A DNA stretch of 64,000 nt, from assembly GCA_964574655.1 (NCBI GenBank), contig CAZNOH010000001.1, positions 329,852 through 393,851 on the forward strand, read 5' to 3'. This document shows positions 2,762 through 49,662 of this stretch, piece by piece. Below the pieces are notes generated by a model. The model worked only from the letters and a program-made list of their open reading frames with translations. It had not been told where the DNA came from and did no database searches. Numbering within the stretch: the stretch's first letter is position 1; every line of letters starts with the position of its first letter. The stretch comes from an uncultured Candidatus Saccharibacteria bacterium. Its GTDB lineage: Bacteria; Patescibacteriota; JABMPQ01; JAQVVF01. Position numbers and translations under genes: made by a program.

Positions 2762-4306
2762 ATGAGAGCAGATCAAATTAAAAATAGAAAAGATAGGATT
2801 TGTTATCGGCTGTATGAAATATTGCCAGGCTTTTTGTCTTGGGGAGTTTTGTTTGGTAGTATAGTTTTATCTTTCATACATCCTGTTTGGGTAGCTATTT
2901 TTATTATTTGTTTTGATGTTTATTGGTTGATAAAAGTGCTGTATTTGGCAGTGTATTTGCTTGTTTCTTATCGAAGGTTAAAAAAGAATGAAAAAGAAGC
3001 ATGGCTCACAAATTGCAAAAAATTGAATCCTACTGACAGGCCAAAATTTGAAGAGATCTATCATCTGGTTATTATTCCAATGGTTTTTGAAGATATTGAA
3101 ATTGTTAAGCAGACTTTTCAAGCTTTAATTTGTGCAAACTATCCGAAAGATAAGATGATTGTGGTTTTGGCAACTGAAGAGAGGGCAGGAATTTGGGCTT
3201 GCAAGGTTGCTGATCGGATAAAAGCGGAATTTGGCGATAAATTTTATCATTTTCAAGTAACAAAACATCCAGATAATATTATTGGCGAGTTAAAAGGCAA
3301 AGGATCTAACGAAACTTGGGCAGCAAAAGAAATTCGTAAATTTATTGATGAAAAAGGATTGTCTTATGAAAGTGTAATTACATCTGTGTTTGATGTTGAT
3401 ACTTGCGTACATCCAGAATATTTTGGCGTTTTGACTTATAAATTTTTGACTGTTCCTGATCATTTGCATGCTTCTTTTCAACCAGTGCCAATGTTTTTTA
3501 ATAATCTTTGGGATTCTCCGGCGTTAATGAGAATCGTGGCAATGAGTACGACTTTTTGGATGCTGATGGAGCAAGGAAGGCCAGAAAAATTGTATACTTT
3601 TTCTAGCCATAGTATGAATTTTAAAACTTTGACTGAAATTGGATTTTGGGAAACCGATGTGGTGTCTGAGGATTCAAGAATATTTTGGCAGTGTTTTAAT
3701 TATTATAATGGCAATTATCGTTGCGAGCCTTTGTTGATTCCTGTTTATATGGATACAGTTTTGGCAGGCACTTTTTGGCAAAGCGTTGTAAATCAATACA
3801 AGCAACAAAGAAGATGGGCATATGGAGCAGAAAATATTCCTTATGTTTTAACTAGATTTTCAAAAAATAAAAAGATTCCATTTTTTAAAAAGCTTGATCA
3901 TGGTTTTTGGGTGGTTGAGGGCATGTTTTCTTGGGCAACAAGCTCAATAATAATTTTTATGGCTGGCTGGTTGCCATTGTTTGTAGGTGGAGAGGCTTTT
4001 TCAAAATCATTATTAGCTCAAAATTTGCCTTATGTGACGCAAATATTAATGACAATGGCAATGTTGGGCATGATCGTTTCTGCTACTCTCAGCATGTTTA
4101 TGCTTCCTCCAAGGCCAAAGAGACATGGGCAACACAAAATATTATTTATGTTGTTGCAATGGATTTTATTGCCGATTTCAACAATTTGTTTGGGTGCTTT
4201 TCCAGCATTAGATGCGCAAACTAGATTAATGTTTGGAAAATATATGGGATTCTGGGTGACTGAAAAGTCAAGAAGGCGTGAGCCAGAAGTAAAAAGTCAA
4301 AATTAA
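2762..4306 (+). CDS. membrane-bound family-2 glycosyltransferase (processive, cellulose-synthase-like)
   Basis: N- and C-terminal TM helices; cytoplasmic domain with DxD-like (FDVDT) and QxxRW motif (QQRRWAYG). Confidence 0.55.
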   Translation: MRADQIKNRKDRICYRLYEILPGFLSWGVLFGSIVLSFIHPVWVAIFIICFDVYWLIKVLYLAVYLLVSYRRLKKNEKEAWLTNCKKLNPTDRPKFEEIYHLVIIPMVFEDIEIVKQTFQALICANYPKDKMIVVLATEERAGIWACKVADRIKAEFGDKFYHFQVTKHPDNIIGELKGKGSNETWAAKEIRKFIDEKGLSYESVITSVFDVDTCVHPEYFGVLTYKFLTVPDHLHASFQPVPMFFNNLWDSPALMRIVAMSTTFWMLMEQGRPEKLYTFSSHSMNFKTLTEIGFWETDVVSEDSRIFWQCFNYYNGNYRCEPLLIPVYMDTVLAGTFWQSVVNQYKQQRRWAYGAENIPYVLTRFSKNKKIPFFKKLDHGFWVVEGMFSWATSSIIIFMAGWLPLFVGGEAFSKSLLAQNLPYVTQILMTMAMLGMIVSATLSMFMLPPRPKRHGQHKILFMLLQWILLPISTICLGAFPALDAQTRLMFGKYMGFWVTEKSRRREPEVKSQN

Positions 4307-4388
4307 AAAATAAAAAGTTACAAGTAAAAATTAAAAAGAACTGCATTCGTTTTTTACTTTTGCCTTTTTATTTTTAACTTTTTAATTT

Positions 4389-6032
4389 ATGTTTGATATT
4401 ATAATCAGGAATGGGACTATTGTAGATGGGACTGGCAAAGAAAAATATCAGGCGGATATTGGAATTAACCGAGATACGATTTCAGAAATTGGAAATTTGG
4501 AAAATGCCAAGGCTTTGCAGCAAATTAATGCTAAGGATTTTTTTGTTTGTCCTGGTTTTGTTGATGTCTTAAATCATTCTGATAGTTATTTTAAGCTTTT
4601 CTCAAATCCAACTTTAGATAGTTTGGCTTTGCAAGGAGTAACAACAATTATCGGCGGTAATTGTGGAACATCTTTAGCGCCTTTATCTTCTAGCTTTACA
4701 ATGAATGAATTAAATAAAAGAATGGGCTTTAAGGCTAATGTAATTACTAATCCAGCTAAAAGTGAGACGTTGTTGAAATCAATGAGAAAATGGATTGATG
4801 TTTCTGGGATTAATATTAATTGGTCTACTCTAGATGAATTTCTTGCTGTTTTAGGTAATCAAGGTCTTTCATTAAATTTTGGTACGTTGATTGGTCATAG
4901 TTCTATTAGGAGAAATCTTGTAGGTGAAAGAATTTCTGATTTATCGACTGATGAACTTACTTTTTTTAAAGAGATGATTGCTGATTCAATTCAACAAGGA
5001 GCATTAGGTATGTCATGCGGTCTTTCTTTTAGTCATGAGAATTTTGTAGAAACTAGCGAGCTTATGGATTTAGCTTCGGTATTGCATGAGTCAGATTCCA
5101 TTATGTCATTTCATCTTCGAAATGAGGCAGAAAGAATTGTTGAATCAGTATCAGAAGCAATCGAAATTGCCAAGAGGAGCGGAGTCAGAGTCGAAATATC
5201 GCATTTTAAGATCAACGGAAAAGAAAATTGGGATAAGATTGACGAAGTTTTATCTTTAGTCGAAAGGGCGAGTGAAAAAGGCTTGGAAATAAATTTTGAT
5301 TTTTATCCTTATGATTTTGGCTGGGCGGTTTTTTATCAATTCTTGCCAAGCTCGTTATATATCGGCGGTAGAGAAAAAATGTTGAAGCGTTTATTAGACG
5401 AAAGAGAGAGACCGGCAATTCTAAATTCTTTGAAGGAAATTTCATTAAGAGTTTCTGATATGATAATTGCTTATAGTCCTTTTAATAAAGCATTTGTGGG
5501 CAGAAGTTTTTCTGACATTGCCAAATCTCAGGGAATAAGTTTGGAAGAAGCAATAATGATGGCTTTGATTGACTCGCGCGGCCATTTAATTTGTTTTGAT
5601 AAAGCATTGGATGAAAAGAATATTGTTAAACAGATAAAACATCCATTGGGAATCTTGTCTTCTGATGGCAGTGGTTTTTTTGAAGAAGAAAATAGAAATG
5701 GCCAGCTTGTTCATCCGAGATGTTTTGGAGCATTTACGCGTTTTTTGGGTAAATATGTTCGTGATTCTAGGTTTTTGGAATGGGAGAAGGCAATCCAAAA
5801 AATTACTTCAATGCCAGCTTTAAAATATGGAATAAATAATAGAGGTTTCCTGCAGGCTGGATTAAAAGCTGATATTGCAATTTTTGATCCAAATAAAATC
5901 ACTGATATGGCAACAATAGAAAATCCTTTTCAATATTCTCGGGGAATAAAATATGTTTTAGTGAATGGGAAGTTCGTAGTTAGCGATTCTAAACATACAA
6001 AAGAATTGGCTGGTGAGATAATTAGAAAATAA
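4389..6032 (+). CDS. amidohydrolase, N-acyl-D-amino-acid deacylase (D-aminoacylase)-like
   Basis: N-term MFDIIIRNGTIVDGTGKEKYQADIGINRDTISEIG...FVCPGFVDVLNHSD typical of D-aminoacylase family; first metal His apparently replaced (NHSD). Confidence 0.55.
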   Translation: MFDIIIRNGTIVDGTGKEKYQADIGINRDTISEIGNLENAKALQQINAKDFFVCPGFVDVLNHSDSYFKLFSNPTLDSLALQGVTTIIGGNCGTSLAPLSSSFTMNELNKRMGFKANVITNPAKSETLLKSMRKWIDVSGININWSTLDEFLAVLGNQGLSLNFGTLIGHSSIRRNLVGERISDLSTDELTFFKEMIADSIQQGALGMSCGLSFSHENFVETSELMDLASVLHESDSIMSFHLRNEAERIVESVSEAIEIAKRSGVRVEISHFKINGKENWDKIDEVLSLVERASEKGLEINFDFYPYDFGWAVFYQFLPSSLYIGGREKMLKRLLDERERPAILNSLKEISLRVSDMIIAYSPFNKAFVGRSFSDIAKSQGISLEEAIMMALIDSRGHLICFDKALDEKNIVKQIKHPLGILSSDGSGFFEEENRNGQLVHPRCFGAFTRFLGKYVRDSRFLEWEKAIQKITSMPALKYGINNRGFLQAGLKADIAIFDPNKITDMATIENPFQYSRGIKYVLVNGKFVVSDSKHTKELAGEIIRK

Positions 6033-7132: not shown

Positions 7133-8620
7133 ATGACAATAGAAGATCTAAAAAAGAAAAATATCCATGTTTTAGGCGTTTCTGGTGCTGAAGGAAGCGC
7201 GGTTTTGGAATTTTTGGCAGATAATGGCATTAAGAATATTACTGCTCATGATTTTTGCGATGAAGATAAATTTAAAGAAAGTTTTTTTTCTTTTCATGAT
7301 AGGTTGAATAAAAAAGAAAAAGAATCAGCTTTTGAAAAAGTCTTCCGCCTTCGCCAAGGCTTTGGCGGACAAGGAAAAATAAAGTTTAATTATAAAGATA
7401 CTTATCTTGACCAAGTTGAAAAGGCTGATCTTGTTTTTGTGCCACAATCTTGGTTCAGATATCCACAAAATAGCGTTTTGCATCAATACAAAGGTAGGAT
7501 TGAATTTTCCAATATTACTAAATTGTATTTTCAATTTTGTAAAGGAAAAATAATCGCAGTAACTGGAACTTCTGGAAAATCAACAACATCGGCATTAGTG
7601 AATGATGTAATGAAGAGAGGTTACAAATCAGGCAAAGTTTATTTTACTGGCAATGATCGCGAAAATGTCCAAGTATTAAATGATATTTTTGAAATAAAAG
7701 AAAATGATATTCTAGTTTTGGAAGTCAGTAATAGACAATTGATGATTGACTTAAAAAAAAGTCCTCATATCGGAATTATTACTAATATTTCGCCAAATCA
7801 TATGGATGATCATAAGACTTTTACTGATTACATTACGACAAAAAGAAGTTTGCTTAGATATCAGAAAAAGGATGATTTTGCGATTTTGAATTTTGATAAT
7901 GATATTACAAAAGATATCGGCTTAGATATTGATTCTACTGTTTATTTTTTTTCAAGAAAAGGCAGAGTTGATCGAGGCGCATATGTCAAATTTAATGAAA
8001 TAACTATTTTAGATGGTGCAAGAGAAAAAAGAATTTGTTCAGTGTTAGATCTCAAAATTCCTGGTCCACATAATATTGAAAATTCTTTGGCTGCAAGTTT
8101 AGTTGGCTATCTGATGGGAATTAATACAAAAGACATTAGAGAAGCGTTGTTAGGGTTTAAAGGAATAAAGTCTAGGTTGGAATTAGTAAAAGAAATTGAT
8201 GGTATTTCATATATAGAAGATTCTTCAGCTTGTAATCCTGAAGGGGCTGCTGTTGCTGTTTCTTCTTTTAGAAAACCGATGCTATTGATTGCCGGAGGTT
8301 CAAGGAAAAAACCTTATCCCGGAGAGTTTGATCGCATGGCTGATTCTGTAATTAATTCTAAAGTAAAAATGGCATTCCTTATTGGAGAAAGAGCAGAAAC
8401 AATAAAGCAGGCTTTGAAAAATTCAAGCATTAGATTTCAGAAAGCTGGTCCAATAATTAAAATTTGTGATAGCTTGGAGGATGCAGTGATATCTGCTAGC
8501 AAGTCAGCAAAAAAGGGTGATATAGTAATTATGTCTCCTGGTTGCGAAAGTTTTGGAATGTTTATTGATTATAGAGACAGAGCAAAGCAGTTTAAACGTT
8601 TGGTTAAAAACCTGGGTTAG
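7133..8620 (+). CDS. murD: UDP-N-acetylmuramoylalanine--D-glutamate ligase
   Basis: Mur ligase P-loop VTGTSGKSTTSAL, position before ftsW; carries in-frame palindromic insert at 7342..7378. Confidence 0.75.
   Translation: MTIEDLKKKNIHVLGVSGAEGSAVLEFLADNGIKNITAHDFCDEDKFKESFFSFHDRLNKKEKESAFEKVFRLRQGFGGQGKIKFNYKDTYLDQVEKADLVFVPQSWFRYPQNSVLHQYKGRIEFSNITKLYFQFCKGKIIAVTGTSGKSTTSALVNDVMKRGYKSGKVYFTGNDRENVQVLNDIFEIKENDILVLEVSNRQLMIDLKKSPHIGIITNISPNHMDDHKTFTDYITTKRSLLRYQKKDDFAILNFDNDITKDIGLDIDSTVYFFSRKGRVDRGAYVKFNEITILDGAREKRICSVLDLKIPGPHNIENSLAASLVGYLMGINTKDIREALLGFKGIKSRLELVKEIDGISYIEDSSACNPEGAAVAVSSFRKPMLLIAGGSRKKPYPGEFDRMADSVINSKVKMAFLIGERAETIKQALKNSSIRFQKAGPIIKICDSLEDAVISASKSAKKGDIVIMSPGCESFGMFIDYRDRAKQFKRLVKNLG
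7342..7378. repeat. intragenic in-frame palindromic element (TCCGCC-TTCGCCAAGGCTTT-GGCGGA-CAAGGAAAA) in murD
   Basis: Near-identical copy in murC at 12821..12860 with compensatory stem change; encodes RLRQGFGGQGK. Confidence 0.65.
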
Positions 8621-16690: not shown

Positions 16691-17023
16691 ATGAAAATCA
16701 CAATTTATCACAAAAAAATTGAATTAACGGACAAGCTTTATGCTTATGTCCAAGAAAAAGTCGGCGGGTTAGAGCAATATATTGACAATGTCATTGAATG
16801 TTTTGTAGAGTTAGACGAAGATACTTCAATGAAATCAGGCAAAAAATTTAGATGCGAAGTGCAAATGAAAATTCCAAGATCTTCAATTCGAGCTGAAGAA
16901 ATCGCTTATGATATTTTTGAAGCAATTGATTTGATAATTCCAAAATTAACTAAACAAATTGAGAGATACAAAGATAATCAAGAACATAAAAGAGGAATAA
17001 GAGAGGTAATGGGTAAAATCTAA
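16691..17023 (+). CDS. hpf: ribosome hibernation promoting factor (HPF/RaiA)
   Basis: MKITIYHKKIELTDKLYAYVQEKV..., typical position upstream of secA. Confidence 0.75.
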   Translation: MKITIYHKKIELTDKLYAYVQEKVGGLEQYIDNVIECFVELDEDTSMKSGKKFRCEVQMKIPRSSIRAEEIAYDIFEAIDLIIPKLTKQIERYKDNQEHKRGIREVMGKI

Positions 17024-17116
17024 TTATTATTGTTATTCTGTAGCTTTGCGAGGAATCCCAAAATTATTTTTAATAACGGGATCTCTCGCCGCGGCTCGAG
17101 ATGACAGAAATTTTTT

Positions 17117-19960
17117 ATGGCATTTAATTTTTTAAAAAAAATATTTGGTGATCCAAATAAGCGAGTTTTAGATCAGCTCGCTCCTTTGGTTGAAAAAATA
17201 AATTCATTAGAGCTGGAAATAAAGAAACTATCGGCTGATGAATTAAAATCTAAAACTCAAGAATTAAAATCGGAATTAAAAAATGGCAAGACTCTAGATG
17301 ATATTTTGCCGAAAGCTTTTGCATTGGTTCGTGAAGCTTCAAAAAGAACAACAAAGATGCGACATTTTGATGTTCAGCTTTTGGGTGGAATAGTTCTTCA
17401 TCAAGGAAAGATTTCGGAAATGAAAACTGGTGAAGGAAAAACATTAGTTGCGACATTGCCATTATATCTTAATGCTTTGTTAGGCAAGGGCGCGCATTTA
17501 GTAACTGTAAATGATTATTTGGCAAGACGTGATACTGTTTGGATGGGACAGATATATAATGCATTAGGGTTAAGTGTTGGCTGTATTCAGCATGAGCAGG
17601 CATTTGTTTATGATCCTAGTTTGAAAAATCCTAAATCCCAAATCCTAAATCCTAAACAAATTACAAATAACAAATTACAAAATTCTAATGACGACGAAAC
17701 TGCTGGCGAACTTGATGAAGAGCGGGATGAGATGGGAAGTTTTAAGGTTTTTCATGAATTTTTACGGCCAGTTACTCGTAAAGAAGCATATTCGGCTGAT
17801 ATCACTTATGGAACAAACAATGAATATGGTTTTGATTATTTGAAAGATAATATGGTTGCAGAATTGTCTGAAAAAGTGCAAAGAGATTTTAATTTTGCGA
17901 TTGTTGATGAAGTTGATTCTATTTTGATTGATGAAGCGAGGACTCCTTTAATTATTTCTGCACCGGCTGAAGAGGCAGTTGATTTGTATAATCAATTTGC
18001 TAGATTAATTCCAAAATTAGAAGAAAACAAAGATTATAATATTGATGAAAAAATGCGGGCAGCAACTTTGACAGATGCTGGAATTGCAAAATTGGAAAAG
18101 ATGTTGGGTTTAAAAAATATTTATGAGGAAAAGGGCATTGAGGTTGTACATCATATAGAACAAGCTTTGAAAGCTCATACTCTGTTCAAAAGGGATAAAG
18201 ATTATGTTGTTAAAAATAATGAAGTAATGATTGTTGATGAATTTACTGGAAGATTAATGCCAGGCAGACGTTTTTCAGAAGGTCTGCATCAAGCATTGGA
18301 AGCAAAAGAAAATGTGGCGATTCAAAGAGAATCAAGGACATTGGCAACGATTACTTTCCAAAATTATTTTAGGATTTATAAAAAATTAGCTGGCATGACT
18401 GGAACAGCGGCAACGTCAGCTGAAGAATTTTCGAAAGTTTATAAATTAGATGTTGTTATAATTCCTACAAACAAACCGTTGGTCCGTAAAAATTTGAATG
18501 ATTTGGTTTATAAAAATGAATTAGGAAAATATATTGCAGTTGTTAAAGATGTGAAAGAGAGGAATAAATTAGGCCAGCCAGTTTTGATTGGCACTATATC
18601 GATTGAAAAAAATGAAAGACTGGGTCAGATGCTAGAAGATGAAGGAATAAAATGCAATGTTTTGAATGCTAAGAACCATGAAAAAGAAGGAGAAATAATT
18701 GCTCAAACTGGAAAAATGGGAGCTGTGACTGTTGCTACAAATATGGCAGGTCGTGGTGTAGATATTATTTTAGGCGGAGTGCCTTTGAATAAAGAAGAAG
18801 CCAAAAAAGTTTGCGATTTAGGAGGTCTTCATGTGATTGGAACAGAAAGGCATGAAGCACGAAGAATTGACAATCAGCTAAGAGGACGCGCCGGACGTCA
18901 AGGCGATCCTGGTTCTTCGCAATTTTTTGTTTCCATGGAAGATGACTTGATGAGAATATTTGGTTCAGACAGAATGAAAGGAATGATGGATACTTTGAAA
19001 TTGCCAGATGATCAGCCAATTGAACATGGATTGATTTCAAGATCAATTGAAGCAGCACAAAGCAAAGTTGAAGGTAATAATTATGATATTAGAAAGCATG
19101 TTTTGGAATATGATGATGTAATGAATAAACATCGCGAAGTTATTTATAAAAAGCGTAATAATGTTTTATTGGCATGGGAGCGTGAAAAATTAAAAGCTAC
19201 AAATTCTAAATCTCAAATCTTGCCTACTGGTAGGCAAGTAGATGACAAATTACAAAATACGAATTCGAAACAACTGACAACTAAAGAAATAGTTTTACAA
19301 TATGTTGAAGATGAGATTGATCAGGTTGTAACTAATCATACTGGAGCAGAAGAAGTAGAAAATTGGAATTGTGAAGAAATTTATGAATCGATTAATTCTA
19401 TTTTTTCAGTTTCAAGCGAGATCCATATTGAATTAAAAAATTTAGCTAAGAAAGCTGGAAATGAAAAAAATGGCGCGGAAGCGAGGACAATAATTATAAA
19501 TTATCTTCTAGGCTTGATGAAGAAGGCTTACGATGTTAAAGAAAAAGAAAATGGATATGAAGGAATGCGACAGATTGAAAGAGCAGTATTGCTTCGAACT
19601 ATTGATTCTTTGTGGATGGATCATCTTGATGCTATGGAGTATATGAGAGAGGGAATTGGTTTAAGAGGTTTTGGTCAAAAGGATCCATTAGTTGAATATA
19701 AAAAAGAAGCATTTGGAATGTTTGGCGCTTTATTGGCAGAAATTCAAAATCGAGTTGTTTACACAATTTTTAAAGTTGGTATTGTTACACAGCAAGTATC
19801 TCCGATGCAAAAAGCAAAACAGCAAATGCAAACTTCTGGAGCAGAAAAAGGCGAAGATTCTAAAATTTTGCCGGAACGGGTTGATGAGATAGGTAGAAAT
19901 GAGCCGTGTCCTTGCGGTTCAAAAAGAAAATATAAGAAATGTTGTGGTAAAGATAAATAA
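17117..19960 (+). CDS. secA: preprotein translocase ATPase SecA, with two in-frame repeat-derived insertions
   Basis: DEAD motor motifs, C-terminal Zn finger CPCGSKRKYKKCCG; insertions at 17625..17700 and 19193..19285. Confidence 0.9.
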   Translation: MAFNFLKKIFGDPNKRVLDQLAPLVEKINSLELEIKKLSADELKSKTQELKSELKNGKTLDDILPKAFALVREASKRTTKMRHFDVQLLGGIVLHQGKISEMKTGEGKTLVATLPLYLNALLGKGAHLVTVNDYLARRDTVWMGQIYNALGLSVGCIQHEQAFVYDPSLKNPKSQILNPKQITNNKLQNSNDDETAGELDEERDEMGSFKVFHEFLRPVTRKEAYSADITYGTNNEYGFDYLKDNMVAELSEKVQRDFNFAIVDEVDSILIDEARTPLIISAPAEEAVDLYNQFARLIPKLEENKDYNIDEKMRAATLTDAGIAKLEKMLGLKNIYEEKGIEVVHHIEQALKAHTLFKRDKDYVVKNNEVMIVDEFTGRLMPGRRFSEGLHQALEAKENVAIQRESRTLATITFQNYFRIYKKLAGMTGTAATSAEEFSKVYKLDVVIIPTNKPLVRKNLNDLVYKNELGKYIAVVKDVKERNKLGQPVLIGTISIEKNERLGQMLEDEGIKCNVLNAKNHEKEGEIIAQTGKMGAVTVATNMAGRGVDIILGGVPLNKEEAKKVCDLGGLHVIGTERHEARRIDNQLRGRAGRQGDPGSSQFFVSMEDDLMRIFGSDRMKGMMDTLKLPDDQPIEHGLISRSIEAAQSKVEGNNYDIRKHVLEYDDVMNKHREVIYKKRNNVLLAWEREKLKATNSKSQILPTGRQVDDKLQNTNSKQLTTKEIVLQYVEDEIDQVVTNHTGAEEVENWNCEEIYESINSIFSVSSEIHIELKNLAKKAGNEKNGAEARTIIINYLLGLMKKAYDVKEKENGYEGMRQIERAVLLRTIDSLWMDHLDAMEYMREGIGLRGFGQKDPLVEYKKEAFGMFGALLAEIQNRVVYTIFKVGIVTQQVSPMQKAKQQMQTSGAEKGEDSKILPERVDEIGRNEPCPCGSKRKYKKCCGKDK
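17625..17700. repeat. in-frame tandem-repeat insertion in secA (AAATCCTA/AAATCCCA x4 then ACAAATTACAAATAACAAATTACAAAAT)
   Basis: Units match intergenic repeat at 8625..8700; encodes NPKSQILNPKQITNNKLQNS. Confidence 0.55.
19193..19285. repeat. second in-frame repeat insertion in secA containing perfect palindrome CTTGCCTACTGGTAGGCAAG flanked by ACAAATTCTAAATCTCAAATC and ACAAATTACAAAAT
   Basis: Shares ACAAATTACAAAAT with first insertion and the 8690 intergenic copy. Confidence 0.55.
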
Positions 19961-35600: not shown

Positions 35601-35677
35601 TGTCATCCCGAACCGCTGTGAGGGATCCCGTTATCGAGTAAATAATCACGGGATTCTTCGCTTCGCTCAGAATGACA
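35601..35677. repeat. 77-nt hairpin element with TGTCATYCTGAG-type terminal inverted repeats (copy A)
   Basis: TGTCATCCCGAACC...CTCAGAATGACA; inverted copy at 36297..36375. Confidence 0.55.
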
Positions 35678-35680
35678 AAA

Positions 35681-35700
35681 TAGATATTATGGATATTCGG
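35681..35700 (+). promoter_or_regulatory. GATATT array tagatattatggatattcgg upstream of kinase gene
   Basis: Shared motif family. Confidence 0.3.
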
Positions 35701-35722
35701 AAATTAAATTATTTATTAATTT

Positions 35723-36295
35723 ATGAAAAAAAACAAAGTGATTGCTGTTGTTGGAATGCCAGGAGCGGGCAAAACTGAAGCAGCAATGTATTTATTAAAA
35801 AAGGGATTAAACAGAGTTTACTTTGGTGATTGTTGTTTTGATGAGATCAAAAAAAGAAAATTAAAAACTAATGCAAAAATTGAAAAAGAGATCAGAGAAG
35901 AATTAAGGAAAAAACATGGGATGGGTGCTTTCGCGATCCTTTCAATGCCAAAAGTAAAAGATGCTTTTAAAAAAGGGGATGTGGTAATTGAAAGTATGTA
36001 TTCTTGGGATGAATACAAGATTGTTAAAGATAAATATAAGAATGATTTTAAAGTTATTGCTGTTTGCGCCAATACTGAGCTTAGACACAAGAGATTAACA
36101 GGCAGAAAAGAATTGAAACATGGTGTTGCTCGAAAATTTTCTTTGAAAGATGCATCTGAAAGAGACTTTGTTCAGATTGAAAATATTGCAACTGGCGGAC
36201 CGATTGCAATTGCTGATTATATTATTTTGAACGAAGGATCAAAGAAGGCTTTGTTTGAAAATTTGGATAAAGTATTGAAAAAAGAAAAAGTTTGA
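35723..36295 (+). CDS. P-loop nucleoside/nucleotide kinase family protein (dNMP/dephospho-CoA-kinase-like)
   Basis: Walker A VIAVVGMPGAGKT; located between dCMP deaminase and thymidine kinase. Confidence 0.5.
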   Translation: MKKNKVIAVVGMPGAGKTEAAMYLLKKGLNRVYFGDCCFDEIKKRKLKTNAKIEKEIREELRKKHGMGAFAILSMPKVKDAFKKGDVVIESMYSWDEYKIVKDKYKNDFKVIAVCANTELRHKRLTGRKELKHGVARKFSLKDASERDFVQIENIATGGPIAIADYIILNEGSKKALFENLDKVLKKEKV

Positions 36296-36296
36296 T

Positions 36297-36375
36297 GTCA
36301 TTCTGAGGCCGTAGCCGAAGAATCTCGTGATTTTTGTTTAACGACGGGATCCGTAGCTTTGGCTCAGGATGACAG
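36297..36375. repeat. 79-nt hairpin element with 12-bp terminal inverted repeats TGTCATTCTGAG/CTCAGGATGACA (copy B, inverted relative to A)
   Basis: Approximately reverse complement of copy A. Confidence 0.55.
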
Positions 36376-36376
36376 T

Positions 36377-36455
36377 TTTAAATCCTGCTTAAAATAAAAA
36401 TTTGGCAGGATTTTTTGTAAATAAAAAAACGGATTAATTAAGAAATCCGTTTTGA
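36377..36455. terminator. back-to-back terminators: AATCCTGC..GCAGGATT+T6 (for + kinase gene) and AAACGGATT..AATCCGTTT (for tdk on minus)
   Basis: Two hairpins with flanking T/A runs. Confidence 0.55.
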
Positions 36456-46578: not shown

Positions 46579-48438
46579 ATGTCTACAAAAAAACAAATAA
46601 AGGAAATTCTTGAAAATATTGATAATGTTGCTGAAAACTCTAAATATTTGCATTCAGTAGCAGATGAATATCGAAAAGTTAGAGATTTGTATTTTGTGAA
46701 ATTGAAAGACGAAAAGAGTGCCAAAAGAATTCAATCGTTAATTGACGTGTTGAATTTTGTGATTTCTGACAATATGCTAAAAGAAGTATCGTCAGGAGTG
46801 TCAGAAAATGGAATATGTTGGAAATATCCTGATATTTCATTTTTTACTGAAAATGGTTTTAAAGAAGTGGAACAGGCATTTAAGACTACAAAAAGTATTA
46901 AACTAAAAGCAAGGTATTCAGATTTTTTTTGGTTATCCAAGAAGGATTATAAAAAAGCCAGAATCGCATTTGATAATTATTTCATTTTAATTAAGAAATA
47001 TGAAGAAGCGGACAAGAAAAATCCAATTGGTTATTTTGGACTTGATGTTTTAGATTCTACTAGAAGAGCTTTTCAAATATCAAAGAGTATTAGTTATCGA
47101 CAATCAGACATTATAAAAGAGATAGAGCGTTTGAGTTTGAATTTTAATTCAAAGAGTAGTTCGAAGTATAAACTAGTAATTGATCTTGTTTCAATAGCAC
47201 TCAATAACAAAAAAGAGTTTAAGAGTGAAGAGTTTTGGCAAGGATTAGTTCTTATTTGTGAGAAATATTATAAAGAATTGAGTAAAGACAAAAATTGGTA
47301 TTTTTCTAGGGATTATCTAAATAATGCTAAAAAAATTGAATTGATGATCTTTAGTAAGAAAAGCAAAAAGTGGGATAAATTGGTTGCAAAAAGTTATCTA
47401 TGCGAGGCTGATTATCATGGAATGCAAGAAAGTTTGGCAGAGCTACCTTCTTTATTGAGCTCAATTGAAGAATATAAAAAGTTAAAAGATTTCAGGAAAA
47501 CTGAAGAGTTAAAGAAACGCTACGAAAAAGCATCCAAAAATGTGAGACTTAAAGAATTAAGAACAGAGATAAATATTTCGAGAATTGTTACTGTTGCCAA
47601 AAATCAAGCAAATGAGTTGTGCAAACAGCGACCCGACGAAGTTTTTAAATATTTACTCTTGAGTCCGGATTTATTTCCGATATACAATAGTATAGAAATT
47701 GAGGCGAAAAAAAATGAAAAAAGATTTGTGTTCATGCATCTAGGCAGTCAAATTGTTTTTGATCAAAAGATGAATATTGCTCGAAGATATTGCTCTAAAG
47801 AAGAAAAACATTTTTTTGCAATTTTACGACAATTTGGAGTGTCTTTTATAATTAACAAGATTTATACAGATATTATTTTTGAGAAGTTAATCGAGAAAAA
47901 TATTTTGACATGGGTTAACACAAGTTCTTTCCTAAGAAAATATTGTTGGTACAAAAATGTTTATGAAGTAAAGAATGATAAAGGAATAACTTTATTTAAA
48001 TCACAAAAATGGCTTGATCTTATGGCACCCGGAATAAAATTATATTTAAATAACGCGAAAAAATATTTAAGAAAAAAAGATAAAAAAATTCCTTATTCAG
48101 AAATTATTTTGGCATCAGATTCATTGGCTATGAAAATAGAGGGAGTGATTAGAGAAATCTTCCGCAAATTGGGTAGATCTACTTTTAAGGTTAAAAGAAA
48201 GGGTGACGAGAACATTACAGTGGAAAAAGATTTAAATGATTTTTTGATTGATAATTTTTCAGAGCAAATGTTTTCTAAGGATTTGACATTATTAATGAGA
48301 TTCTTATTAATAGAACCATCGGGTTATAATCTAAGAAACAACATAGGACATTGCTTGATTCAAAAAGAAGATTATAATTTGTCAAATTTGCATTTTTTAT
48401 TTTTGATTTTGCTCAGATTGGGTAATTATAAATTTTAA
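46579..48438 (+). CDS. large hypothetical protein with C-terminal HEPN-like Rx4H motif (LRNNIGH); candidate defense protein
   Basis: 619-aa ORF, no P-loop; 12-nt gap to downstream Cas4-like nuclease gene. Confidence 0.4.
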   Translation: MSTKKQIKEILENIDNVAENSKYLHSVADEYRKVRDLYFVKLKDEKSAKRIQSLIDVLNFVISDNMLKEVSSGVSENGICWKYPDISFFTENGFKEVEQAFKTTKSIKLKARYSDFFWLSKKDYKKARIAFDNYFILIKKYEEADKKNPIGYFGLDVLDSTRRAFQISKSISYRQSDIIKEIERLSLNFNSKSSSKYKLVIDLVSIALNNKKEFKSEEFWQGLVLICEKYYKELSKDKNWYFSRDYLNNAKKIELMIFSKKSKKWDKLVAKSYLCEADYHGMQESLAELPSLLSSIEEYKKLKDFRKTEELKKRYEKASKNVRLKELRTEINISRIVTVAKNQANELCKQRPDEVFKYLLLSPDLFPIYNSIEIEAKKNEKRFVFMHLGSQIVFDQKMNIARRYCSKEEKHFFAILRQFGVSFIINKIYTDIIFEKLIEKNILTWVNTSSFLRKYCWYKNVYEVKNDKGITLFKSQKWLDLMAPGIKLYLNNAKKYLRKKDKKIPYSEIILASDSLAMKIEGVIREIFRKLGRSTFKVKRKGDENITVEKDLNDFLIDNFSEQMFSKDLTLLMRFLLIEPSGYNLRNNIGHCLIQKEDYNLSNLHFLFLILLRLGNYKF

Positions 48439-48450
48439 AAATATATATTT

Positions 48451-49209
48451 ATGTCCACATATTACAAATCCAATCGTACAAAAAATATCTACGATCCAAA
48501 AAGCAAAGAGCCATACAAATTATCTCGCTCAAAGATTGAGAGTTTTTTGAGATGTCCGAAATGTTTTTATTTAGACAGGCGTCTTGGAGTTGGCCAGCCA
48601 CCTAGTTATCCTTTGAATTTGAATACTGCAGTTGATCATCTTCTCAAAAAAGAATTTGATTTGCACAGAGCAAAACAAAAAGCGCATCCGTTGATGAAAG
48701 CTTATGGGATTAAAGCAGTTCCTTTTGCTCATGAGATGATTAATGAGTGGCGAGAAAATTTTAAAGGCGTTAGATATCATCACAAGTCGACCAATTTCAT
48801 TATTTCTGGAGCAGTTGATGATTTATGGAAAGATACAAAAGGCAAGATTATTGTTGTTGATTACAAGGCGACAAGCAAGGATGCAAAAGTAACTTTGGAT
48901 GCAGAATGGCAAGGCGGATACAAAAGGCAGATGGAAATATATCAGTGGTTGCTTCGCAAGAATGGTTTGAAGGTTTCTGATACTGGTTATTTTGTTTATT
49001 GCAATGGAAAGAGAGACAGAAAAGCATTTGATGCAAAATTAGAATTTGATATTGATTTATTGCCATACGAGGGCGATGCTTCTTGGATTGAAAAGACTTT
49101 GAAAGATATTAAAAAATGTTTGAATGGAAAAATGCCGAAATCAGATGATGATTGCGATTATTGTAATTATCGGAATGCAGTTGAAATCGCAGAAAAACGC
49201 AGAAGCTAA
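48451..49209 (+). CDS. Cas4/RecB-family PD-(D/E)xK nuclease with four-Cys cluster
   Basis: N-terminal RCPKCFYL (CPRxxY-like), VDDLW...IIVVDYKAT (D..DxK), QMEIYQ (QxxxY), C-terminal CDYCNY. Confidence 0.65.
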   Translation: MSTYYKSNRTKNIYDPKSKEPYKLSRSKIESFLRCPKCFYLDRRLGVGQPPSYPLNLNTAVDHLLKKEFDLHRAKQKAHPLMKAYGIKAVPFAHEMINEWRENFKGVRYHHKSTNFIISGAVDDLWKDTKGKIIVVDYKATSKDAKVTLDAEWQGGYKRQMEIYQWLLRKNGLKVSDTGYFVYCNGKRDRKAFDAKLEFDIDLLPYEGDASWIEKTLKDIKKCLNGKMPKSDDDCDYCNYRNAVEIAEKRRS

Positions 49210-49237: not shown

Positions 49238-49513
49238 ATGTATTATCTTTATATTTTAGAATGCGCTGATAAGACTTTATATACTGGAATTACAACAGAT
49301 TTGAAGCGAAGATTGATTGAGCATAATAATTCTAAATTAGGTGCAAAATATACATGTGCTAGAAGACCAGTAAAATTAGTTTATTCTAAAAAATTTAAAA
49401 CCAGATCATCTGCTAGTAAGGAAGAAGCTAGAATTAAAAAATTGAAAAAATCGGATAAATTGGAATTGATTCGTAGGGGTTCAACCCTGTCATTCGACAG
49501 GGCAAGTATTTGA
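49238..49513 (+). CDS. GIY-YIG nuclease domain protein (YhbQ/UPF0213-like); 3' end overlaps REP element
   Basis: YYLYILECADKTLYTGITTDLKRRLIEHN...EEARIKKLK. Confidence 0.6.
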   Translation: MYYLYILECADKTLYTGITTDLKRRLIEHNNSKLGAKYTCARRPVKLVYSKKFKTRSSASKEEARIKKLKKSDKLELIRRGSTLSFDRASI

Positions 49514-49521
49514 ACCCCTAC
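49473..49521. repeat. REP element GTAGGGGTTCAA-[CCCTGTCATTCGACAGGG CAAGTAT]-TTGAACCCCTAC
   Basis: GTAG...CTAC ends; same family as 51063 and 51375. Confidence 0.65.
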
Positions 49522-49536
49522 TGTTTTATTTTTGTC

Positions 49537-49565: not shown

Positions 49566-49577
49566 GATCTTGATTAT

Positions 49578-49648
49578 TCCGGGATCATCTAATGGTAGGA
49601 TAGCAGGTTCTGGACCTGCTTATCTTGGTTCGAATCCAAGTCCCGGAG
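49578..49648 (+). tRNA. tRNA-Gln (anticodon CTG)
   Basis: Acceptor TCCGGGA/TCCCGGA 7 bp, anticodon stem GCAGG/CCTGC with loop TTCTGGA, T-arm CTTGG-TTCGAAT-CCAAG; manual fold, D-arm short. Confidence 0.65.
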
Positions 49649-49662
49649 TGAAATGTAATTTT

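Follow-up and report, generated by a model that had tools for sequence, protein, structure and literature searches.

The closest described relatives of the repeats reported here are the repetitive extragenic palindromes (REPs) of the CGTC-tagged superfamily, which includes dRS3 (= CGTC-1) of Neisseria as well as RPE-4 and RPE-6 of Rickettsia (Di Nocera, De Gregorio, Rocco 2013, BMC Genomics 14:522; PMC3733652). In that survey, a CGTC REP features an unpaired tag, CGTC and often TGTC (the variant CCTC occurs too), a stem of 8-9 bp whose positions 1-2 are complementary A-T, a loop of 4-5 nt and a short unpaired tail with the consensus CCA. Most copies are arranged as head-to-head dimers with the tags outside, often heterodimers with structured spacers, next to singletons and few clusters; they lie in intergenic regions near the 3' ends of open reading frames (ORFs), have no dedicated transposase and are listed for five phyla (PMC3733652). 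Here, we report three elements of similar architecture, designated A, B and C, in a 64,000-nt window (the whole stretch of DNA analyzed, AT-rich and taken from contig CAZNOH010000001.1 of an uncultured Candidatus Saccharibacteria bacterium), two of which bracket a P-loop kinase-like gene.

A second point of comparison is a partnership between repeats and nucleases in Neisseria. There, SsnA, a GIY-YIG nuclease of 94 aa with a single domain, binds the longer Neisseria repeat NTS (CGTCATTCCCGCGMAVGCGGGAATCYRG) when the DNA is single-stranded (Chenal et al. 2025, Nat Commun 16:2388; PMC11893778). Binding depends most on the C that directly follows the palindrome, and cleavage on the three bases ahead of it, with the Ssn cut itself a few bases upstream; ssn genes (cd10448) are commonly flanked by repeats on both sides, and the Ssn system lowers transformation by NTS-bearing DNA in Neisseria (PMC11893778).

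We conclude that each of A, B and C is probably a dimer, joined head to head, of REP hairpins with TGTC/CGTC tags, of the CGTC REP/Ssn-related kind. They represent a stem variant, and come from a phylum, outside the coverage of the published motif. The family is recognized by its architecture, by covariation within local hairpins, by the lack of target-site duplications, by presence or absence that is independent from site to site, and by Ssn-type genes embedded between such units elsewhere.

Architecture of elements A, B and C

The three dimers and their parts lie at the following positions of the window.

35601-35677, no strand assigned: element A, a head-to-head dimer of two tagged REP hairpins (covariance model score 70.9 bits, E 7.5e-19).
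35601-35627, plus strand: left half-unit of A, with tag TGTC, stem ATCCC/GGGAT, a 2x2 internal loop, an apical mini-hairpin and then C.
35628-35651, no strand assigned: variable spacer of A, whose ends pair as CCCGT..ACGGG and lengthen the central hairpin.
35652-35677, minus strand: right half-unit of A, the canonical TGTCATTCTGAGCGAAGCGAAGAATC read on the minus strand.
36296-36374, no strand assigned: element B, a second head-to-head dimer, inverted with respect to A (56.1 bits, E 1.8e-14).
36296-36324, plus strand: left half-unit of B, TGTC-ATTCT-GA-GGCCGTAGCC-GA-AGAAT-C.
36348-36374, minus strand: right half-unit of B, TGTC-ATCC..GGAT-C.
17031-17106, oriented as B: element C, a third and more diverged head-to-head dimer (45.5 bits, E 2.6e-11).
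17031-17057 (plus strand) and 17080-17106 (minus strand): half-units of C, the minus-strand one with the stem variant ATCTC/GAGAT.

The scores come from a covariance model of the repeat family run without filters over the 64 kb, with A in the training set and C outside it; beyond A, B and C, nothing in the window reached better than E 0.25. A preliminary description of this DNA had reported A and B and missed C, the third copy. Its coordinates for A stand, those for B (36297-36375) have to be moved one base to the left, and its internal ATCCCG..CGGGAT hairpin stem is present. The inverted terminal motif that it assigned to every end, TGTCATTCTGAG/CTCAGAATGACA, is exact at three of the four ends, namely 35666-35677 (minus strand), 36296-36307 (plus strand) and 36363-36374 (minus strand), while the fourth, at 35601, reads TGTCATCCCGAA, a version with two mismatches. 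Taken alone and with two mismatches allowed, this 12-mer is not above chance, with 8 matches versus 7.4 expected. The two elements are approximate reverse complements, as had been described: A matches the reverse complement of B at 75% identity and B read directly at 66%, shuffled versions of B giving a mean of 49% and a maximum of 57%. Each is also about 65% identical to its own reverse complement, and orientation is therefore a weak character in these elements. Folded as RNA, A and B have minimum free energies of -27 to -33 kcal/mol, with z-scores of -3.9 to -5.0 versus shuffled sequences.

On the transcribed strand, each element follows a stop codon at a distance of 0-7 nt. For A this is the stop codon of the dCMP deaminase gene, 5 nt away, and on its other side 45 nt separate it from the kinase start; B begins immediately 3' of the TGA stop of the kinase gene, with a terminator hairpin downstream of it; C occupies the spacer between hpf (16691-17023) and secA (17117-19960), 7 nt after hpf and 10 nt before the secA start codon.

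The repeat unit is a hairpin of about 26 nt, (T/C)GTC-AT-YCTGAG..GAAGR-AT-C, and two such units form a dimer with the tags facing outward. The full consensus reads TGTC-AT-Y-CT-GA-G-CGNAGC-G-AA-G-R-AT-C, followed by a variable spacer and the reverse complement of the same block. From the outside in, a unit comprises four unpaired bases (TGTC), a 5-bp stem opening with A-T and T-A, an internal loop of two non-Watson-Crick positions (G.A and A.G), a GC clamp of 2-3 bp and a loop of 3-4 nt, this apex being of the GCGNAGC mini-hairpin type; a C follows right after the stem. The left half-unit of A folds in this manner, with a 5-bp stem, the internal loop and a 2-bp apical stem. The six half-units of the window share this shape with four different stems, all paired (ATCCC/GGGAT, ATTCT/AGAAT, ATCC/GGAT and ATCTC/GAGAT), and five of the six carry the tag TGTC, the left half-unit of C having TGTT. 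In an alignment of 68 elements of the family, the first two stem pairs are A-T and T-A in 61-67 sequences, and column 39 of the alignment, which follows the stem, is C in about 62-65 of them, the next bases being mostly TC or CC and paired into the spacer hairpin. Many elements of the family have different loop variants in their two halves.

Like the CGTC REPs of that survey, the window family combines an unpaired tag, a stem start of A-T and T-A, head-to-head dimers (often heterodimers with structured spacers) and intergenic placement near the 3' ends of ORFs, is present in several phyla and has no dedicated transposase. The short unpaired tail may be matched by the C after the stem, the bases beyond it being mostly paired into the spacer hairpin and not reading CCA. 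The published dimensions, a stem of 8-9 bp and a loop of 4-5 nt, fit if the unit is counted as 8 positions plus a 5-nt loop, and do not fit as continuous pairing.

Covariation shows which of the possible hairpins is the conserved one. At the variable stem positions, read in the order outer-left Y, inner-left R, inner-right Y and outer-right R, 130 unique elements fall into CGCG (36), CGTA (32), TACG (29), TATA (29) and other combinations (4). The Y hence finds its pairing R within the same half in 126 of the 130 elements, while the two halves assort at random. In the 68-sequence alignment, the two local pairs are CG in 42, UA in 25 and UG in 1 sequences, and CG in 38, UA in 28 and UG in 2, with none unpaired, whereas the alternative long-range pairs would leave 17 and 14 sequences unpaired. 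Since Y and R pair within halves and are random between halves, the conserved unit is the local hairpin, and a fold of the whole element into one long hairpin is without support from covariation.

Spread and genomic behavior of the family

The pattern GTCATYCTGAG-N40-70-CTCAGRATGAC matched 42 loci in a viral-contig collection and at least 120 loci in a one-genome-per-species collection, at G+C contents from 0.34 to 0.67. More than 12 phyla are covered, Patescibacteria included, versus the five listed in the survey of CGTC REPs: among the matches listed are Bacteroidota, Chloroflexota, Acidobacteriota, Patescibacteria, Omnitrophota, Firmicutes, Planctomycetota, Verrucomicrobiota, Gemmatimonadota, Nitrospirota, Synergistota, Melainabacteria-like Cyanobacteria and Proteobacteria. 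The GTC of the tag was demanded by the pattern and is also found in copies obtained via the covariance model or a protein-first search, and the inner blocks CGAAGRATC/GATYCTTCG are nearly invariant though they lie outside the search pattern. Immediately 5' of GTC stands T in 85% and C in 12% of cases, with nothing conserved further out.

A direct repeat at the borders, as a target-site duplication would leave, is absent in 153 of 169 family members. The fetched loci contain 217 dimers with tags outward and 132 solo half-units, plus some tandem arrays, a ratio biased to dimers by the use of a dimer pattern to choose the loci. No protein family recurs among the 1121 ORFs lying within 300 nt of elements, where clustering returned only duplicate phage contigs and ABC ATPases. 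Rfam, searched at gathering and permissive thresholds with the window and canonical family members, gave no family, only sub-threshold miRNA-like hairpin noise. The consensus element gave one weak match in BLAST against plasmid records and none against phage records. A scan of the viral collection for split dimers with an insert of about 300 nt returned nine matches, none with flanking tags, which were taken as chance.

The elements could be read as cis-acting RNA, that is, as hairpins selected to serve as 3' stabilizers, RNase processing sites or translation-termination modulators of the deaminase, kinase and hpf messages. Their position just after stop codons on the transcribed strand agrees with this, B folds better on the sense strand (-32.7 versus -27.2 kcal/mol), and REPs near ORF 3' ends are reported as RNA elements in the CGTC survey (PMC3733652). 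The orthologous copy of A also favors it. In the relative L165, A lies at the same site (5872-5948) and is 85.7% identical to that of the window, while the adjacent spacer is 60% and synonymous third positions are about 70% identical; the spacer of A differs with its pairing kept, and the stem changes are compensatory, e.g. ATCCC:GGGAT versus ATCCT:AGGAT. The hairpins of A are therefore maintained, through selection or through conversion among copies. Against a role as RNA, the consensus is the same on both strands, so that on any transcript the 3' half of an element has pyrimidine mismatches. Elements lie between divergent genes about as often as the background (22 of 94 versus 131 of 773), tandem, convergent and divergent placements all being near background proportions, and the strand bias of solo half-units relative to transcription is not significant (23 versus 13). 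B and C are, moreover, absent in close relatives, and Rfam gave no match. We consider this reading improbable; a role as a 3'-untranslated region or terminator feature was rejected, given context and strand statistics like those of the background.

The dimers might alternatively be REPINs moved by a REP-associated tyrosine transposase (RAYT), i.e. a Y1 enzyme of the IS200/IS605-like type. REPINs and the related bacterial interspersed mosaic elements (BIMEs) have the same architecture, with two inverted REP hairpins around a spacer, many intergenic copies, singleton remnants and no target duplication (Bertels and Rainey 2011, PMC3116915; PMC3337134). The REPs served by RAYTs, however, are tagged GTAG and REPIN families are lineage-specific, whereas the window family is tagged (T/C)GTC and is conserved in sequence across phyla; the CGTC survey likewise finds CGTC repeats unassociated with tyrosine transposases (PMC3733652). 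The genes embedded between family units are GIY-YIG rather than Y1, and no recurrent Y1-like or other transposase-like neighbor was found among the ORFs beside elements. Mobilization by a RAYT is thus very unlikely.

Several features of the wider family were seen in passing. Tandem arrays and dense dimer clusters resembling BIMEs occur in L019 (8546-8969, with constant linkers of 12-13 nt), L028 (9003-9429), L056 (7582-7723) and L091 (3265-4891). A 57-nt chimeric unit, made of one canonical half-unit plus CTCATGATTTTTATTGAATTTCTCACCCGACA and with a conserved outer flank AACGATTGCYTTATT, recurs in AT-rich metagenome contigs and may be part of a larger, composite repeat belonging to another organism. 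Its sites are as follows.

L206, 5354-5410
L181, 877-933
L180, 201-257
L204, 944-1000
L186, 2251-2307
L214, 622-701
L194 and L172, further sites

The kinase gene and the history of its locus

The gene bracketed by A and B, and the hairpin beyond B, are the following.

35723-36295, plus strand: P-loop kinase-like gene (Pfam AAA_17/AAA_18), with dCMP deaminase on one side and thymidine kinase (tdk) on the other.
36380-36416, plus strand: terminator hairpin and T-run, AATCCTGC..GCAGGATTTTTT, read from the sequence.

The identity of this ORF and its place between deaminase and tdk are as the preliminary description gave them. The same description saw in A and B a pair of miniature inverted-repeat transposable elements (MITEs), or a composite element whose ends could have delivered the kinase gene or could excise it. 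Such a transposon would account for two inverted elements bracketing exactly one gene, for kinase homologs at 53-62% identity in other gene contexts, and for a contig of the family, L026, in which two identical inverted copies stand around 3.2 kb. Homologs of the kinase number in the hundreds in Patescibacteria, and the loci of three relatives tell against it as cargo. In L165, whose kinase is 90% identical, the block scpA-scpB-deaminase-kinase-tdk-ydjM-CBS-fpg is kept with A alone, B being absent and the terminator following directly after the kinase stop. In L167 (kinase 74% identical) the same gene block has neither A nor B, and in L168 (68% identical) the kinase follows scpB with no element. 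The kinase thus occupies its position without the elements, the outcome that the preliminary description had itself named as speaking against its proposal. Target-site duplications, which it had suggested looking for, are wanting at single elements and were not seen around the A..B block either. The end sequences covary within halves and not between ends, C is the same element as a singleton, and no transposase is associated. A composite transposon is hence extremely unlikely, and the alternative that A and B are attC-type sites around an integron-like gene cassette is still less likely: imperfect palindromes of attC-like length do flank a single promoterless-looking ORF, but they are inverted rather than direct, none of the GTTRRRY/RYYYAAC core sites of attC was seen by eye, no integrase is among the ORFs read near the locus, the same element stands alone between hpf and secA, and the kinase is fixed in relatives without the sites.

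What survives of the MITE comparison is a dispersed, non-autonomous repeat of mobile type. This part is borne out because presence and absence differ between close relatives, and because a near-identical copy of the A subfamily, with the same unusual left loop GAACCGCAGTGAAGG, sits at an unrelated site in L197, between glycosyltransferase and flippase genes; a related copy lies between radA and recG in L207. Like classical MITEs (Correia/NEMIS, RUP, ERIC), the elements are short, non-coding, palindromic, dispersed and variable in presence between relatives; unlike them, they have no target-site duplications, and their supposed terminal inverted repeats of a transposon are two independent hairpins. 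We know of no DDE transposase partner for this repeat family.

C has a similar history, being absent from the hpf-secA spacer of the relatives L220 and L221 (HPF 89% and 86% identical). Since relatives keep the kinase block with A only or without elements and lack C, the comparison of these sequences indicates that A, B and C were gained or lost independently, with the kinase as a resident gene, not cargo. The more distant kinase homologs P0006 and P0008 have other gene contexts and no elements, and were set aside as uninformative on insertion history.

The hairpin at 36380-36416 is likely the terminator of the scpA..kinase unit, and the hairpin found directly 3' of the kinase in L165 is the same one; a consensus terminator scan made no call at this position, the loop being longer than 8 nt.

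Further observations concern these spacers and their contigs. The kinase has 190 aa here versus 194 aa in L165 (36284-36295 versus L165 6560-6585), and its TGA abuts the first base of B; insertion of B may have reshaped the C-terminus. The kinase-tdk spacer of L167 (2655-3293) is 640 nt long, with a GC-richer core and short palindromic AT-rich repeats on each side; it was considered as an RNA gene and rejected, having no Rfam match, and it holds no convincing ORF either. Where the window has C, L220 (3340-3470) and L221 (3325-3420) have unrelated long AT-rich palindromes, and it seems that the hpf-secA spacer holds some hairpin in each genome. Two short-read, kinase-bearing Logan contigs of the same organism, L001 and L002, both start inside A, as would be expected if assemblies break at a multi-copy repeat. 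The phage-like contig L026 has its identical copies at 5173-5252 and 8427-8506, inverted around 3.2 kb with a second tape-measure-like gene, and direct repeats 2726 nt apart, which suggests recombination or duplication at the repeats; it was rejected as a composite element, the 3.2 kb being a duplicated tape-measure module and no clean cargo.

GIY-YIG genes and the place of the family

Among the loci selected by their elements, three contain Ssn-type GIY-YIG genes, two of which have half-units of precisely this family on either side. In L077, a metagenome-assembled genome of Omnitrophota, a 96-aa GIY-YIG ORF (4104-4394; PF01541, E 3.8e-18) is preceded at 15 nt by a unit TGTCATTCTGAG..GAAGAATC (4057-4088) and followed, from the base after its stop, by a unit GATCCTTCG..CTCAGGATGACA (4395-4431). 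The arrangement in L038 is similar, its ORF also matching PF01541, and the same contig was later retrieved by a protein-first scan as L241. These loci recall the ssn loci, a single-domain GIY-YIG gene of about 95 aa lying between repeats in both. When 21 Ssn-type genes were picked by protein similarity alone, 8 had adjoining matches to the published pattern of the Ssn-related motifs (SRMs); of the others inspected by eye, most had YGTCAT- or CGTCAT-tagged hairpins with other stems nearby.

The likeness extends to the repeat itself, NTS and the SRMs being counted in the CGTC/TGTC-tagged superfamily together with dRS3. The window family, TGTCATYCTGAGCGNAGCGAAGRATC, shares with NTS the frame YGTCAT-palindrome-ATC around a different stem, and the GTC before and the C after the palindrome are conserved in it. 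In the NTS/Ssn systems, units take the form of local hairpins on single-stranded DNA, where a small single-domain GIY-YIG nuclease (Ssn), its gene typically placed between two such units, binds them and cuts a few bases upstream of the tag. A, B and C probably entered their intergenic spacers independently, each just 3' of a stop codon, and the kinase gene was in place before A and B and is carried by neither. Action of a GIY-YIG nuclease on the three copies of this genome is a tentative proposal, one we hold to be somewhat less probable than its opposite. As stable hairpins within transcripts or at their ends, the elements could possibly also affect how the messages of the upstream genes decay or how their translation terminates.

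The window contains a single GIY-YIG gene.

49238-49513, plus strand: GIY-YIG gene, 91 aa, single domain (PF01541, E 2.1e-18).

Its best relatives in the PDB are UPF0213 proteins (1ywl, E 2.5e-17). Over 66 aa, the protein shares 38% identity with the Ssn-type protein of L077, and it is without the GFTKKY and REKQIKGW motifs of Ssn-type sequences. No repeats flank the gene in the window or in two relatives, and as the cognate nuclease it is therefore an unsupported candidate, being UPF0213-like and unflanked. Among its homologs from many lineages of Patescibacteria, identity is 75-90% (more than 3500 matches at E<=1e-10), an unusual degree of conservation, far above expectation for genomes this divergent.

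Several points weigh against placing A, B and C with the CGTC REPs and the Ssn system. The stem of the window family is broken by G.A/A.G mismatches and its tail is CTC or CCC, whereas CGTC REPs have a continuous stem of 8-9 bp and the tail CCA; the family was placed in that superfamily, for which four families are published, by its described features. Standard energy parameters favor one long hairpin per whole element over the local hairpins. The conservation of A above neutral proxies could mean a host function instead of a selfish repeat. Just two independent loci, L077 and L038, have an embedded Ssn-type gene, both first seen via the repeat pattern, and no Ssn-type gene was found in the window, whose sole GIY-YIG gene is of the kind just described. 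Finally, unlike the SRMs, the family falls outside the published degenerate pattern, HGTCWYN(0-2)YYVSBRHN(0-5)WNVSBRGN(0-2)RNCYNB, which matches the NTS and NTSvar controls and has zero matches in the window: none of the six half-units, nor the family consensus, nor the units of L077. Because the degenerate pattern does not match the family, this repeat variant would have been missed by the published SRM survey.

The surroundings of the GIY-YIG gene of the window have features of their own. At its end (49470-49530), a terminator hairpin, GTAGGGGTTCAA..TTGAACCCCTAC, contains a 25-nt insert, CCCTGTCATTCGACAGGGCAAGTAT, which is itself a small hairpin and extends the GIY-YIG ORF; in L278, the loop at this place is TATA only. 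Directly 5' of the gene, 46579-49209 encodes a 619-aa DUF7380/DUF4209 protein and a Cas4-like PD-(D/E)XK nuclease, where L278 has different genes (SNase, AttH). With a tRNA-Gln near (49577-49649 of the window), the stretch 46579-49209 may be a small variable or defense-like islet next to tRNA-Gln.

In the literature, the 11-15-nt motif strings of the family and their translated peptides returned only primers and a paper on Cycas. The mitochondrial Bpu elements of Cycas and Ginkgo have the 36-nt consensus AAGGTTATCCCTTTCCTGAGCGTAGCGAAGGGAAGG (PMC8297867), and the 17-nt core that they contain, CCTGAGCGTAGCGAAGG, recurs exactly in the bacterial half-unit as the C/G variant of its apical module, a T-A / G.A / A.G / G-C / C-G / GNA-loop mini-hairpin. 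Unlike the half-units, Bpu elements lack the GTCAT tag and the ATC tail, have AAGG terminal direct repeats, and are single and organellar. The likeness may reflect convergence on a very stable mini-hairpin; to suppose that the core is shared by ancestry would be a further stretch.

No new kind of system is revealed by this locus, and a false lead is removed: the kinase is an ordinary resident salvage gene and not mobile cargo. Peptides like VILSEAKNL and HPERSEGS belong to a very common class of spurious small ORFs, for which the repeat offers a simple explanation; it may also explain contig breaks in metagenome assemblies. It is conceivable, and in our view rather unlikely, that the TGTCATYCTGAG..GAAGRATC hairpin defines a distinct pan-bacterial branch of Ssn type that escapes current motif definitions, with the unusually conserved UPF0213-like GIY-YIG protein as its partner in the candidate phyla radiation in place of a classical cd10448 Ssn, and that the bracket limits replacement of the kinase by transformation; if so, the repeat-kinase-repeat arrangement would resemble the NTS-gene-NTS of Neisseria and would mark incoming single-stranded DNA for cleavage. 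More broadly, a G.A-bulged mini-hairpin variant of the CGTC/TGTC REPs is conserved almost base for base over more than 12 phyla and reaches into Patescibacteria with their small genomes. It is linked to genes of Ssn-type GIY-YIG proteins although it lies outside the published motif, and would extend both the range and the sequence space of the partnership between Ssn nucleases and their repeats.

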